A stretch of DNA of 32,000 bases. It comes from Arthrobacter sp. Bi83 (lineage in GTDB: Bacteria; Actinomycetota; Actinomycetes; Actinomycetales; Micrococcaceae). A program made the translations under genes and the position numbers. A model generated the notes under the pieces. The model worked only from the letters and a program-made list of their open reading frames with translations. It searched no databases and was not told the origin of the DNA. The stretch is from the NCBI RefSeq assembly GCF_918698095.1, contig NZ_CAKKLY010000020.1, positions 1 to 32,000 of the forward strand, read 5' to 3'. The first letter of the stretch is position 1; every line of letters begins with the position of its first letter. Positions 101 to 23,907 of the stretch are shown here, in pieces.

Positions 101-2950
101 GTGTACGAGCCAAGTCCGAACCCTCGAAAGATAGTTTCCATGGCTGACACTGCAATGAATTCCGAAACAGATCTCGCCGCAGAACTCCGTGCGGACGTGC
201 GCCGCGTCTCCACCCTGCTGGGTGAATCGCTGGTCCGCCAGCACGGCCCCGAGCTCCTGGATCTCGTGGAGCAGGTGCGCCTGCTGACCAAAGAATCCAA
301 GGAGGCCGCCCGTGGCGGTGCGGATGCCACCGGTCCATGGAGCGCGCACGACGTCGTTGCCCAGGTCCGCGAGTTGCTCGCCTCCCTGCCGCTTGAGCAG
401 GCGACCGACCTGGTCCGCGCCTTTGCCTTTTACTTCCACCTGGCCAACGCCGCTGAACAGGTCCACCGGGTCCGCGGCCTGCGCACGCGGCAGGAGAAGG
501 ACGGCTGGCTCGCCAAGGCCGTCGCCGACATCGCCGGCCAGGCCGGCCCGGCCGTGCTGCAGGAAGTGGTCAACGAACTGGACGTGCGGCCCATCTTCAC
601 TGCCCACCCCACCGAGGCCTCCCGCCGTTCGGTGCTGGACAAGATCCGCAAGCTCTCCGATGTGCTGGCCGAGCCCACGGCGGAGGGCACCACTGCCCGC
701 CGCCGGCAGGACCGCCAGCTGTCCGAGATGATCGACCAGATGTGGCAGACGGACGAGCTCCGCCAGGTCCGGCCCACCCCGGTGGACGAGGCCCGCAACG
801 CCATCTACTACCTCAACAGCATCCTCACCGACGCCCTGCCCGAGATGCTCACGGATCTGTCCGCACTCCTCGGCGAGCACGGCGTCACCCTGCCTGCCCA
901 GAACGCCCCGATCAGGTTCGGTTCGTGGATCGGCGGCGACCGCGACGGCAACCCCAATGTCACCGCGGCCGTGACCCACGACATCCTCCAGCTGCAGAAC
1001 CAGAACGCCGTCCGGATCAGCATTGCCATGCTTGACGAGCTCATCTCGATCCTGTCCAACTCCACGGCCCTGGCCGGCGCGGACCAGGCGCTGCTCGATT
1101 CGATCGACGCGGACCTCGCGAAGCTGCCCGGCCTGGACCGGCGCATCCTCGAGCTCAACGCCCAGGAGCCCTACCGGCTCAAGCTGACCTGCATTAAGGC
1201 CAAGCTCATTAACACGGGCAAGCGGGTGTCGGCAGGATCGGCGCACCAGTCCGGCCGCGACTACACCTCCACCGAGGAGCTCATCTCCGAGCTGGAGCTG
1301 CTGGAACTCTCGCTGCGGAACCACTCGGCGTCGCTCGTCGCGGATGGTGCCCTGGCCCGCGTCCGGCGCGCCATCGCCTCCTTCGGCCTGCACCTGGCCA
1401 CCCTGGACATCCGCGAGCACGCCGACCACCACCATGACGCCGTCGGGCAGCTCATGGACCGCCTGGGCGGCCCTGGCATCCGGTACGCCGAACTGACGCG
1501 CGGCGAGCGTCTTGAGGTGCTGAGCGCGGAACTGGCGTCCCGCCGTCCGCTGTCCGGCCACCCGATTAAGCTCGACGGCGTTGCTGACGGCACGTACGAC
1601 GTCTTCCGCGAGATCCGGCGCGCCCTGCGCACCTACGGCCCCGATGTCATCGAGACGTACATCATCTCCATGACCCGCGGCGCGGACGACGTCCTTGCCG
1701 CTGCCGTCCTGGCACGTGAGGCCGGGCTGGTCAGCCTCTTCGGCGACGCCCCGTACGCAAAGATCGGCTTCGCCCCGCTGCTCGAAACCGTGGAGGAACT
1801 GCGGGCCTCCGCGGAGATCGTGGACCAGCTGCTGTCCGATCCCTCCTACCGCGAACTTGTCCGCCTGCGCGGCGATGTCCAGGAAGTCATGCTGGGCTAC
1901 TCGGACTCCAACAAGGAGTCCGGTGTGATGACCAGCCAGTGGGAGATCCACAAGACCCAGCGCAAGCTCCGCGACATCGCTGCCAAGCACGGCGTCCGCG
2001 TCCGCCTCTTCCACGGCCGCGGCGGATCCGTCGGCCGCGGCGGCGGGCCCACGTACGACGCAATCATGGCCCAGCCCAACGGCGTGCTCGAGGGTGAAAT
2101 CAAGTTCACCGAACAGGGCGAAGTCATCTCGGACAAGTACTCGCTGCCGGAACTGGCCCGCGAGAACCTGGAGCTGTCGCTGGCCGCCGTCATGCAGGGT
2201 TCCGCGCTGCACCGCACCCCGCGGACGTCCGATGACCAGCGTGAGCGCTTCGGGCACGTCATGGAGACCATCTCCGACGCCGCCTTTGCCCGTTACCGCA
2301 GCCTGATCGATCACCCCGACCTGCCGGCGTACTTCATGGCCTCCACGCCCGTGGAGCAGCTCGGCTCACTCAACATCGGTTCCCGCCCGTCCAAGCGCCC
2401 CGACTCGGGCGCCGGCCTCGGCGGCCTGCGGGCCATCCCGTGGGTGTTCGGCTGGACCCAGTCCCGGCAGATCGTGCCCGGCTGGTTCGGCGTGGGCTCC
2501 GGCCTGAAGGCTGCCCGCGAGGCCGGCAACTCAGGCCAGCTCGTGGAGATGATGGAAGGCTGGCACTTCTTCCGCTCGGTGCTCTCCAACGTGGAGATGA
2601 CGCTTGCCAAGACGGACATGGACATTGCCGGCTACTACGTGGACACCCTGGTTCCCCCGGAACTGCACCACCTGTTCCGCGCCATCCGCGAGGAGTACGA
2701 ACTCACGGTCACGGAAATCCAGAACCTCACCGGCGAGAACGTGCTCCTGGACGCCCAGCCCACGCTCAAGCGGTCACTGGAAATCCGCGACCAGTACCTC
2801 GACCCCATTAGCTACCTCCAGGTGGAACTACTGCGCCGTGTGAGGGCCGAAGGGACCAGCATTTCCGGTGCCGAGATCGACGAGCGCCTCCAGCGGGCCA
2901 TGCTCATCACCGTCAACGGAGTCGCGGCCGGCCTGCGCAACACGGGGTAG
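101..2950 (+). CDS. ppc: Phosphoenolpyruvate carboxylase
   Basis: 949-aa ORF with PEPC hallmarks in the translation: [39 protein letters not shown] and C-terminal ...GLRNTG. Start is uncertain: GTG 101 or ATG 140 (MADTAMNSE...). Confidence 0.95.
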
Positions 2951-2970
2951 CGCCGGGCGTTCAACCACCG

Positions 2971-3348
2971 ACGCTCTCTCACTTCCTGCTGTCTTTTCCC
3001 AACGCTCTCTCACTTCCTGCCGTCTTTTCCCAAACGCTCTCTCACTTCCTGCCGTCTTTTCCCAAACGCTCTCTCACCCGGTGAGAGAGCGTTTGGGTTT
3101 TTGGTGCGGTAGGTGAGAGAGCGTTTGGGTTTTTGGTGCGGTAGGTGAGAGAGCGTTTGGGTTTTTGGTGCGGTAGGTGAGAGAGCGTTTGGGTTTTTGG
3201 TGCGGTAGGTGAGAGAGCGTTTGGGTTTTTGGTGCGGTAGGTGAGAGAGCGTTTGGGTTTTTGGTGCGGTAGGTGAGAGAGCGTTTGGGTTTTTGGTGCG
3301 GTAGGTGAGAGAGCGTTTGGGTTTTTGGTGCGGTAGGTGAGAGAGCGT
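2971..3348. repeat. Inverted tandem-repeat array A: 4 forward plus 9 reverse copies of core ACGCTCTCTCAC/GTGAGAGAGCGT at 32-bp period
   Basis: Forward core copies start at 2971, 3002, 3034 and 3066. Reverse copies start at 3081, 3113, 3145, 3177, 3209, 3241, 3273, 3305 and 3337. The reverse unit GGTGAGAGAGCGTTTGGGTTTTTGGTGCGGTA is essentially perfect. The array fills the convergent gap between the ppc stop (2950) and the ABC ATPase stop (3359). Confidence 0.95.
3061..3102 (+). terminator. Intrinsic terminator candidate for ppc at the inversion point of array A
   Basis: Perfect 17-bp stem, CCCAAACGCTCTCTCAC (3061-3077) with GTGAGAGAGCGTTTGGG (3081-3097). Loop is 3 nt, followed by TTTTT (3098-3102). 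Confidence 0.7.
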
Positions 3349-3358
3349 CGTGGCGGGG

Positions 3359-4117
3359 TCAGGGGTGGTCGCCGTATGCCGGGCCGTAGTGCACCACGAT
3401 GGTCCGGCGGCGCGTGTCATCGTCGGCATAGGTGACTGTGCTCAGCGGCACGCCGTAGAGGTCGGATAGCGCCGAGTCCGTGAGCAGCTCCGAAGCCTGA
3501 CCAGTCCGGGCGCCGCTGCGGCCCAGGAGGACCACGCGGTCTGCGAGCTGCAGGGCATGGTCGGGGTGGTGGGTGCTGAGCAGCAGGGCCATTCCGCCGG
3601 CCATCAGTTCGCGCAGGAGGGTCAGGACCCGGACCTGATTTTTCAGGTCAAGGCCCGTAGCGGGCTCGTCCAGCACCAGGACGGGGGAGCCGGATGCGAT
3701 CGCCCGCGCGATGAGAATCAGCTGTTGCTCGCCGCCGCTTAGGGTGGGGAACAACCGGTCCCGCAGGTCGCCGGCGCCCACGCGTTCCATCGCCTCCGCG
3801 GCAGCTGCCCGGTCCGCAGACCCCGGTGTCCGGAAGACACTTACATGCCTCGCCCGTCCCATCAGAACCATGTCCAGCGCGCGGTAGGCGAAGGCGCTGC
3901 CGTGGGCCTGCGGCACGTATCCGGCGCTTTCGGTGCGGCGGACCGTTCCCTCTGCCGGTGCGAGCAGCCCGGCGGCACAGCGCACCAGGGTGGTCTTGCC
4001 GCTGCCGTTGGGTCCGAGCACTGCGGTGGCCGTGCCGGCCGGCACCCGGAAACTGACGTTCCGAAACAGCCACTCCTTCGCCGTGTAGCCGAAGCCCACC
4101 CGCTCCAGTTCAAGCAC
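3359..4117 (-). CDS. ABC transporter ATP-binding protein (FecE/BtuD-like)
   Basis: Walker A GPNGSGKTT, signature LSGGEQQ, Walker B VLVLDEP, H-loop STHHPD. Start is placed at GTG 4117 (VLELERVGF...), overlapping the permease stop (4110-4112) by 8 nt. The longer ORF-track start at 4174 would add a non-conserved extension overlapping the permease. Confidence 0.9.
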   Translation of the reverse strand: MLELERVGFGYTAKEWLFRNVSFRVPAGTATAVLGPNGSGKTTLVRCAAGLLAPAEGTVRRTESAGYVPQAHGSAFAYRALDMVLMGRARHVSVFRTPGSADRAAAAEAMERVGAGDLRDRLFPTLSGGEQQLILIARAIASGSPVLVLDEPATGLDLKNQVRVLTLLRELMAGGMALLLSTHHPDHALQLADRVVLLGRSGARTGQASELLTDSALSDLYGVPLSTVTYADDDTRRRTIVVHYGPAYGDHP

Positions 4118-5249
4118 TGTCCCAGATCCTTTCCCGGTTCCGGCGCAGAAGCAGGAAGAAGGCGGGCGCGCCAATCAGGGCGGTGAGCACTCCCAGCGGA
4201 ATCTCGCCGGCAGTCGCGGTCCGGGCAAGTGTGTCGACCAGGACGATGTAGGCCCCGCCCAGCAGGAAGGACACGGGCAGCAGTACCCTGTGGTCCGGTC
4301 CCACCCACATCCGGGCAAGGTGCGGAACCACCAGGCCCACCCAGCTCACTGCACCGCTGACAGCAACCGCCCCGGCCACGATCAGCGCTACCGCGACCAG
4401 CACAACCCAGCGCAGCGGACCGGGCTGTACCCCCAGGGCGGCGGCGTCGTCGTCGCCCAGTGAAAGCACGTTGATGCGCCAGCGCAATAGCAGGAGTATC
4501 GCGGCGCCACCCAGGACGGGGACCAGCGCCACCAGGACCTTCGTGAACGTGGCTGTGGCAACGCTGCCAAGCAGCCAGAAGACGATGGCCGGCAGGGTGG
4601 TGTTGGGGTCCGCGATGTAGGTGACCAAAGCGACCAGGGCGGAGAAGAACGACCCCGTGACCACCCCGCCGAGCACGATCATCAGCATCGGGGTTCCTGC
4701 CCGGCCCGAGGTGATCAGGAACAGCGTGGCGAGGGCAACCAGGCCAAAAACGAAGGAACCGGCGACCAGCAGGAACGTGCCCAGGCCGAGCAGCAAAGCC
4801 AGGGAACCGCCGAAGGACGCGCCGGCGGAAACCCCGATGATTTCCGGGCTGACCAGCGGATTGCGGAAGATGGCCTGCAGGGCCGCGCCCCCGATCGCCA
4901 GGCCGCCGCCCACCAGCAGGGCGAGCAGGATCCGCGGCATCCGCACGAGCAGAACGACATTCTGCTCCGTGCCGCTTGCCTCGGTGGGGAACGGAACGAG
5001 CTGGGCACCGAGGATCTGGACGACATGCCCCACCGGCACGCTGTACCGGCCGGCTGCCAGTGCCAGCAGTCCTGCGGCTGCCAGGAAAACGGCGGTAAGC
5101 GCGATGGGCCCGAAGATGGCAGGTTCGCGGCGCCGGTCGAGGGGACCCCGCCCCGATGCCTTCCGGTCAGCCCGCAGGCGGCGGCTGTTCAGGCCCCTGC
5201 GGTTCAGGCCCCTGCGGTTAAGGCGCGGAGTCCTCGCTTCATCCAGCAT
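4110..5249 (-). CDS. ABC transporter permease, FecCD/BtuC family
   Basis: 379-aa polytopic hydrophobic protein with many Gly/Ala/Leu-rich helices, sitting between a Peripla_BP_2-like binding protein and the ATPase. ATG 5249 overlaps the binding-protein stop. The N-terminus is Arg-rich and contains a 15-bp tandem duplication. Confidence 0.85.
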   Translation of the reverse strand: MLDEARTPRLNRRGLNRRGLNSRRLRADRKASGRGPLDRRREPAIFGPIALTAVFLAAAGLLALAAGRYSVPVGHVVQILGAQLVPFPTEASGTEQNVVLLVRMPRILLALLVGGGLAIGGAALQAIFRNPLVSPEIIGVSAGASFGGSLALLLGLGTFLLVAGSFVFGLVALATLFLITSGRAGTPMLMIVLGGVVTGSFFSALVALVTYIADPNTTLPAIVFWLLGSVATATFTKVLVALVPVLGGAAILLLLRWRINVLSLGDDDAAALGVQPGPLRWVVLVAVALIVAGAVAVSGAVSWVGLVVPHLARMWVGPDHRVLLPVSFLLGGAYIVLVDTLARTATAGEIPLGVLTALIGAPAFFLLLRRNRERIWDSA

Positions 5250-23658: not shown

Positions 23659-23907
23659 ACGCCCTCTCACTTCCTGCGGCTTAAACCGGAACGCTCTCTC
23701 ACCTCCTGTCGCTGAAACCGAAACGCTCTCTCACGCGGTGAGGGAGCGTTCCGGTTTCGTGCGTGAGGTGAGAGAGCGTCGGCCCGGATCGTGCGTGAGG
23801 TGAGAGAGCGTCGGCCCGGATCGTGCGTGAGGTGAGAGAGCGTCGGCCCGGATCGTGCGTGAGGTGAGAGAGCGTCGGCCCGGATCGTGCAGGAGGTGAG
23901 AGAGCGT
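23659..23907. repeat. Inverted tandem-repeat array B: 3 forward plus 6 reverse copies of the array A core at 32-bp period
   Basis: Forward cores start at 23659 (ACGCCCTCTCAC, degenerate), 23691 and 23723. Reverse cores start at 23738 (GTGAGGGAGCGT), 23768, 23800, 23832, 23864 and 23896. The reverse unit is GGTGAGAGAGCGTCGGCCCGGATCGTGCGTGA. Lies between the SRPBCC stop (23630) and the MocR stop (23925). Confidence 0.95.
23716..23760 (+). terminator. Hairpin at the inversion point of array B (weak intrinsic terminator candidate)
   Basis: A 19-position stem pairs 23716-23734 with 23738-23756, with one G-U pair and one mismatch. Loop is GCG. Only a short T-run (the terminal TT of the right arm, 23755-23756, plus T 23757) is present, so the T-tract is weak. 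Confidence 0.4.

Follow-up and report, generated by a model that had tools for sequence, protein, structure and literature searches.

The window analysed here is a stretch of 32,000 nucleotides of Arthrobacter sp. Bi83 (contig NZ_CAKKLY010000020.1, positions 1 to 32,000); the genome, referred to as G000, comprises 4.89 Mb in 121 contigs and has 65% G+C. Two convergent genes, ppc and a gene for an ABC transporter ATPase, are separated in this window by a gap of 408 bp (2951-3358), and a two-armed repeat array, termed array A, fills the gap except for the 20 nt between the ppc stop codon and the first repeat core and the 10 nt between the last core and the stop codon of the ABC ATPase gene. The original prediction, made from the sequence alone, had described this gap as two unit types arranged around a hairpin and T5, with 4 forward and 9 reverse cores at 2971-3348. 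Apart from the flanking nucleotides just named, the description was borne out, and the cores were present at these positions. The coordinates of the features are collected in Table 1.

Table 1. Coordinates of array A, its flanking genes and array B in the window
Feature	Position	Strand	Description and evidence
ppc (phosphoenolpyruvate carboxylase)	140..2950	+	Pfam PF00311, E = 0, residues 16-936; open reading frame and codon-score gene call
Array A, left arm	2971..3077	+	4 cores ACGCTCTCTCAC; 3 full units (31, 32, 32 bp) and a terminal core
Array A, central hairpin	3061..3102	+	CCCAAACGCTCTCTCAC-ccg-GTGAGAGAGCGTTTGGG, then TTTTT; terminator scan and fold
Array A, right arm	3081..3348	-	9 cores; 8 identical 32-bp units and a terminal core; Tandem Repeats Finder
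ABC transporter ATPase gene	3359..4117	-	Pfam PF00005, E = 1.2e-25; gene call
Array B	23659..23907	none	3 forward and 6 reverse cores; period as in array A, spacers different

The left-arm cores of array A start at 2971, 3002, 3034 and 3066 and are joined by the spacer TTCCTGCCGTCTTTTCCCAA. The right-arm cores, GTGAGAGAGCGT, extend from the first at 3081 to the last at 3337 at a spacing of exactly 32 bp, and the right-arm unit reads ACGCTCTCTCAC + CTACCGCACCAAAAACCCAA on the minus strand. Left-arm units are co-directional with ppc and right-arm units with the ABC ATPase gene, and each arm closes with a bare core, leaving 3 + 8 full units. The strict 32-bp phasing that had been claimed holds for all right-arm spacings and for the later left-arm units, but not for the first forward unit, which is 31 bp long and carries one substitution. 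A core of 12-17 nt had also been claimed; ACGCTCTCTCAC was confirmed as the core, but the part conserved across the family described below extends past 12 nt. Tandem Repeats Finder reported period 32 for both arms, with 3.4 copies and 97% matches at 2971-3077 and with 8.4 copies and 100% matches at 3080-3348. Allowing up to one mismatch, 22 cores were counted in the window against 0.27 expected, and none of 100 shuffles reached this number. A CRISPR array requires unique spacers, but the spacers of array A are identical within an arm and the arms are inverted; a CRISPR array was therefore rejected, as the prediction had also held. Local recent amplification, likewise proposed there, would be the simplest reading of the eight identical right-arm units, a copy number as read from the 121-contig draft assembly. 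At the orthologous ppc site the closest relative found, genome G002 (89% identity in ppc), carries 4 + 4 units with a core of its own, ACGCGTCCTCAC.

Array A is one member of a real 32-bp gene-end repeat family of Arthrobacter-group genomes. Exact cores occur 86 times in G000, against about 0.6 expected by chance. About 28 arrays with period 32, array B among them, were found in this genome, and their forward arm always precedes the reverse arm. A pattern search for core pairs at a 32-bp distance gave at least 120 loci in genomes of Arthrobacter, Pseudarthrobacter and Paenarthrobacter. These counts agree with the multi-locus nature for which a genome-wide core search had been proposed, and they dispose of the contrary outcome named with it, a core absent elsewhere and arising from one-off slippage. 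Arrays in other genomes at these loci numbered 131, of which 63 were two-armed and 68 one-armed; the outward-facing order, reverse before forward, was seen in 0 of these 131. In a profile of 376 units the core was conserved, and so were T14, G18 and C19, an A/T run spanning positions 23-26 and, at position 32, a purine. In a scan of 301 genomes of the bacterial family the narrow core pattern was found in 3 of 38 genera. The core sequence of array A is discussed in no relevant paper of the literature searched, and the family is apparently unpublished. An Rfam search returned nothing beyond noise-level microRNA matches. Phage origin was considered and rejected: 2.9 million viral contigs yielded 8 matches, about the chance level by a rough estimate, and these came from contigs of differing G+C or from single short runs.

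An artefact of short-read draft assembly is a very unlikely explanation of array A, or at least of its copy number. In this assembly of 121 contigs, six G000 arrays are no more than 300 nt away from a contig end, and a perfect tandem repeat of 288 bp is hard for short-read assembly; the same architecture nevertheless recurs in many independent assemblies, complete genomes included, and G002 has its orthologous locus of 4 + 4 units. As an observation in its own right, two contig-end arrays of G000 (C8:100567-100893 and C59:24147-24513) have a common central insert of about 75 nt (…CGACGGCGGCGTGCTKGCCTGGGTGCCCGGGCCGACCTTGGTGGG), and they are probably one repeated locus that broke the assembly.

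Genes were called with a codon-score model trained on G000, and 28 arms in this genome stood behind a co-directional gene, with 8 exceptions. The median distance from the stop codon to the first core was 14 nt. Two-armed arrays lay in convergent (26), tandem (29) and divergent (5) gene contexts. The family elements at these gene ends probably help to end transcripts. Downstream of ppc, an array was found in just a few of 24 same-genus genomes, the remaining ones having plain hairpins or a different palindromic element. A second palindromic family (e.g. GCTCTATCACTTTTGGTCCCTAAA ... TTTAGGAACCAAAAGTGATAGAGC) was observed at gene-end positions without 32-bp arrays, namely at L128, L131 and L138, downstream of ppc in other genomes, and at L176:1400-1500 in G247. 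The 32-bp arrays and this second family seem to be interchangeable as gene-end hairpins.

The hairpin at the centre of array A (3061-3097) has a perfect 17-bp stem with 10 G-C pairs and a CCG loop, is followed by TTTTT on the plus strand and stands 110 nt downstream of the ppc stop codon. A GC-rich stem-loop directly before a U-run and downstream of a gene, the feature of intrinsic terminators, is thereby found on the plus strand. Array A shares with intrinsic terminators its GC-rich 17-bp stem, 3-nt loop and U5, but differs from them in that its stem sequence is common to about 30 loci, that the stem is flanked by up to 8 more copies of each half, and that a terminator scan of the minus strand, the direction of the convergent ABC ATPase gene, found no U-run after the hairpin. 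Plus-strand RNA of array A was predicted to form four 17-bp helices arranged as a ladder (-206.9 kcal/mol, z -10.5), and minus-strand RNA also folded far more strongly than shuffles (z -10.7). Sense units paired solely with units of the opposite arm in these folds, and the earlier claim that every forward core is able to pair with each of the reverse cores holds. The A/T run of single arms, read on the sense strand, was T 63 times and A 9 times; two-armed arrays favoured T in both arms on the same DNA strand by 20 to 10. Where both arms of an array in a tandem-gene context had A/T runs, the T-run strand was the coding strand in 12 of 12 cases, and therefore hairpin and U-run face the gene running into the array. 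A hairpin followed by a U-run in this orientation fits the requirements of an intrinsic terminator. The hairpin and T5 of array A are accordingly placed as a predicted intrinsic terminator of ppc, and the ppc transcript probably has its 3′ end fixed by array A, as what would be a terminator with amplified spare parts.

Two other readings of the arms bear on these results. The sense arms of array A are rich in C and poor in G (C 0.44 and G 0.09 in the left arm, C 0.47 and G 0.06 in the right) and lead into a hairpin, as would be expected if they were Rho-loading (rut) tracts, that is, C-rich, G-poor, unstructured RNA behind a gene. Across the 376 units, however, the skew stems from the core alone, with C 0.31 and G 0.30 at positions 20-32. 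Rut sites are not known to be defined by a conserved sequence, and the common, genome-specific 12-nt core would be left unexplained, which makes this reading very unlikely. Alternatively, the arrays could be phased DNA sites bound by a protein of the nucleoid-associated or roadblock kind, with an incidental hairpin; the cores would then share one helix face, as the original prediction had proposed from the arithmetic of the 32-bp period. The period is strict across loci despite different spacers, and the A/T run keeps a fixed position, whether as T or as A on the sense strand. Against this, the polarity of the A/T run tracks the direction of transcription, pointing to RNA, the arms always face each other and never the opposite way, as pairing requires, and no candidate binder emerged besides the DUF559-like protein described below; we consider the phased-site reading improbable. 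Mimicry of the anti-Shine-Dalgarno sequence by the sense unit was also considered and rejected, as about 35% of units have A at positions 15-16 and the cores of other genomes are unrelated.

The core variant and the bases adjoining it differ genome by genome. When 13 array loci of G000 were compared in G002, some had the G002 core, one had the G000 type and several were without an array. Growth by nested insertion at the array centre was not supported, the spacers of equal rank in the two arms being unlike. Conversion in situ, inferred from conserved spacers, was weakened by spacer subfamilies that are common to unrelated array loci. Two core types were seen within one arm: at the 3′ end of a 703-aa gene in G316 (L179) the gene-proximal units carry GTGAGAGAGCGT and the inner units GTGAGCGAGCGT, and this mixed arm may record the order of unit addition. 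Some arrays of G000 were found with other DNA between their arms, a 4.2-kb segment at C16:61327-65858 and a 282-aa gene at C22:47359-48769. The corresponding arms in G002 (L162, L166) flank one short intergenic gap, and the segment is located elsewhere, which places rearrangement breakpoints at the array centres.

A REP-associated tyrosine transposase (RAYT) had been proposed as the partner of the arrays. This proposal did not hold: PF01797 gave 0 matches in G000 (100% complete), in a search that matched 6 of 14 control genomes, and a different gene occupies the position expected of the RAYT. A screen of array-adjoining genes yielded a DUF559-like gene of about 320 aa, with Pfam PF04480 at threshold, whose homologues are named 'DUF559 domain-containing' or 'endonuclease domain-containing protein' in the databases. 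The other array-adjoining genes were dismissed as partners, being ordinary housekeeping genes. The DUF559-like gene stands between a forward and a reverse arm at nine external loci, on contig C109 of G000 and in 19 further copies (G002, G004, G247, G276, G316 and 14 more); the downstream arm is missing at the G004 and G316 copies and unreadable as 32-bp units at a few others. The cores that frame the gene are those of the scattered arrays of the same genome. G296 has three copies of the gene in three contexts, each with its own core type, and in G066 each of two copies is framed by its own core type; both genomes hold dispersed array populations of the same core types as the frames. Orthologues of at least 60% identity were found in the two genera that hold most arrays, and the seven paralogues of 35-52% identity were all without arrays. 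Plasmid carriage was not supported, the only finds being paralogues of 35-38% identity on Arthrobacter megaplasmids. A sequence search of solved structures with the DUF559-like protein gave nothing significant, the best nuclease-like match being 3r3p with E = 0.68, and such repeats are the subject of no title or abstract among the DUF559 papers listed.

Two further observations concern the surroundings of this gene. The sequence CCTGTGGATAACTTC lies about 50-60 nt upstream of the start codon in nearly all DUF559-like copies examined, with a one-base change in two; its positions are, for example, 190-215 in L173 (C109 of G000) and 6105-6125 in L020. It contains TGTGGATAA, which we take to be the complement of the DnaA-box consensus. 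Contigs of only 1-2 kb carry most of the close homologues of this gene's protein in metagenome assemblies, and such short contigs are as expected for a gene framed by assembly-stopping repeats.

We hold, with moderate confidence, that array A is a locus of a REP/BIME-like family of dispersed repeats (after the repetitive extragenic palindromic, or REP, repeats) specific to the Arthrobacter group, in which a DUF559-like partner spreads the arrays, turnover is local and the elements are used as transcript ends. The unit consists of a 12-nt core and a semi-conserved tail with an A/T run and is repeated in tandem behind gene ends; arms that meet always face each other, so that the innermost cores form a long GC-rich hairpin. 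The DUF559-like protein would recognise the core and, over evolutionary time, would seed, spread or homogenise arrays, thereby playing for them the role that RAYT plays for REPs through an unrelated enzyme fold. Arms would lengthen or shrink locally by slippage or unequal exchange, and the eight identical right-arm units of array A may have arisen in this way. The cell would use or tolerate the elements as transcript ends; at array A the hairpin and U5 would end ppc, with the outer units as possible back-up helices. As the partner gene on C109 carries a 1-nt deletion, the arrays of G000 may be a population untended by the enzyme.

Co-occurrence of gene and arrays was judged by a criterion fixed beforehand, under which gene-plus genomes should have at least 10 excess matches to the generic core pattern and gene-less genomes at most 5, two failures among gene-plus genomes counting against the link. 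Among nine gene-less genomes, seven stayed at the level of the controls. Several results weigh against the reading preferred here. The two remaining gene-less genomes, G199 and G232, had a few real arrays. Only three gene-plus genomes out of five passed; the generic pattern showed no excess in G223 and G125, so that the criterion failed as written. The frames in G223 and G125 were inspected afterwards and have the cores ACGCTCGGTTG and ACGCTCGGTTA, which the generic pattern cannot match; a core-specific pattern gave 36 matches in G223 and 26 in G125 (2 and 0 in controls) and 0 in three gene-less genomes. With core type corrected in this way, arrays were found in all re-examined gene-plus genomes, and we regard this rescue as good evidence but after the fact. 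The gene copy on C109 of G000 is frameshifted by the deletion mentioned above and its closest paralogue has a stop, and still G000 tops the narrow-pattern scan with very uniform units; therefore local expansion does not depend on this protein. The fhs gene lies upstream of the DUF559-like gene and this synteny is conserved within the genus, where a link of the arrays to the gene cannot be told apart from one to the locus. Core type also tracks the species tree. Regarding the protein, QYDG(G)HH is invariant in the alignment of the array-framed clade (L020:6159-7115, residues 248-256), and at its position array-less paralogues of 35-41% identity have (E/D)YEG; Q thus replaces the acidic residue of the nuclease motif, and the framed clade may therefore not cut DNA. 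The structure model of the protein is poor (pLDDT 42). Finally, in many arrays the hairpin is not followed by a U-run, and the orthologous array behind ppc in G002 is one of these. On balance the link of the family with the DUF559-like gene is strong as a pattern, and its mechanism is putative.

Some of these observations would suit arrays that are ordinary cis-acting transcript-end elements, terminators or 3′-end protectors that selection and local slippage alone brought about and maintain, with the DUF559-like gene as a mere passenger, e.g. a homing-type selfish gene inserting at array centres. The hairpin and T5 of array A, the T-run polarity in tandem contexts and the location at gene ends agree with such elements; the 282-aa gene and the 4.2-kb segment are other inserts between arms, and the arrays of G000 are abundant while its gene is broken. 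However, a 12-nt sequence common to about 30 loci is not required for termination, nor is one that changes from genome to genome, and every extra copy of the gene brings its own core population. Gene-less genomes in two genera have zero or few arrays. We consider this explanation, with its passenger gene, rather unlikely.

The REP/BIME-RAYT systems of Proteobacteria (REPtron, REPIN-RAYT) share several properties with the family described here. The intergenic repeats of both are short and specific to a species, number from tens to hundreds and stand mostly behind genes, in clusters and in inverted, hairpin-forming pairs; both also have a usually single gene framed by its own repeats, extra copies of which bring their own repeat type. 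They differ in that the PF01797 search of G000 found no Y1/HUH transposase and the gene framed by the Arthrobacter-group family is DUF559-like, with a restriction-endonuclease-type fold, in that the unit of the G000 type is not itself palindromic and its sense units are G-poor, and in that the units follow one another head to tail at a constant 32-bp period in two opposed arms. The MIRU elements of mycobacteria and the BOX elements of pneumococcus are, like this family, tandem intergenic modules that are oriented with neighbouring genes and vary in copy number; their unit lengths and sequences differ from those of the 32-bp family, and we know of no opposed-arm architecture or framed partner gene in either.

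The BoxC/PIT/TMECO 'intrastrand triplex' repeats of Escherichia coli and other bacteria are, like the present family, orphan, conserved and strictly intergenic, contain pyrimidine and purine blocks and are linked to local genome variability (PMC4666352), but they have another block order and no 32-bp period. No terminator activity of these elements was found in an earlier study, as cited by PMC4666352 (ref. 41). The TMECO consensus CCCTCNCCC-N3-6-GGGNGAGGG-N3-GGGNGAGGG gave 0 matches in G000, in both the three-block and the two-block form. In Escherichia coli K-12 (L216, NC_000913.3) a full BoxC/TMECO motif was observed at 4206-4240, 167 nt after the stop codon of ycjD, a DUF559 gene; this closeness is unlikely by chance, because just 23 BoxC/TMECO copies are present in E. 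coli K-12 (PMC4666352). It is possible, although we put it forward only tentatively, that the DUF559-like protein binds DNA sequence-specifically at the 12-nt core, acts there as a nuclease or nickase and seeds, copies or homogenises the arrays across the genome, as a RAYT-independent counterpart of the REP systems, and that, by extension, DUF559 proteins such as YcjD are the missing partners of orphan repeats such as BoxC/TMECO.

REP-type repeats affect where transcripts end, how stable mRNAs are and how genomes rearrange, and RAYT is to our knowledge the sole enzyme linked to them so far. The 32-bp arrays break short-read assemblies and mark points of rearrangement, among them those by which G000 and G002 differ at C16 and C22, and their copy number could be tried as a strain-typing marker in soil Arthrobacter. 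If the proposed partnership is true, the widespread DUF559 family would acquire its first function open to testing; it would be a second enzyme family, unrelated to RAYT, that is framed by repeats specific to its own genome, which would mean that a REP-like lifestyle arose more than once.
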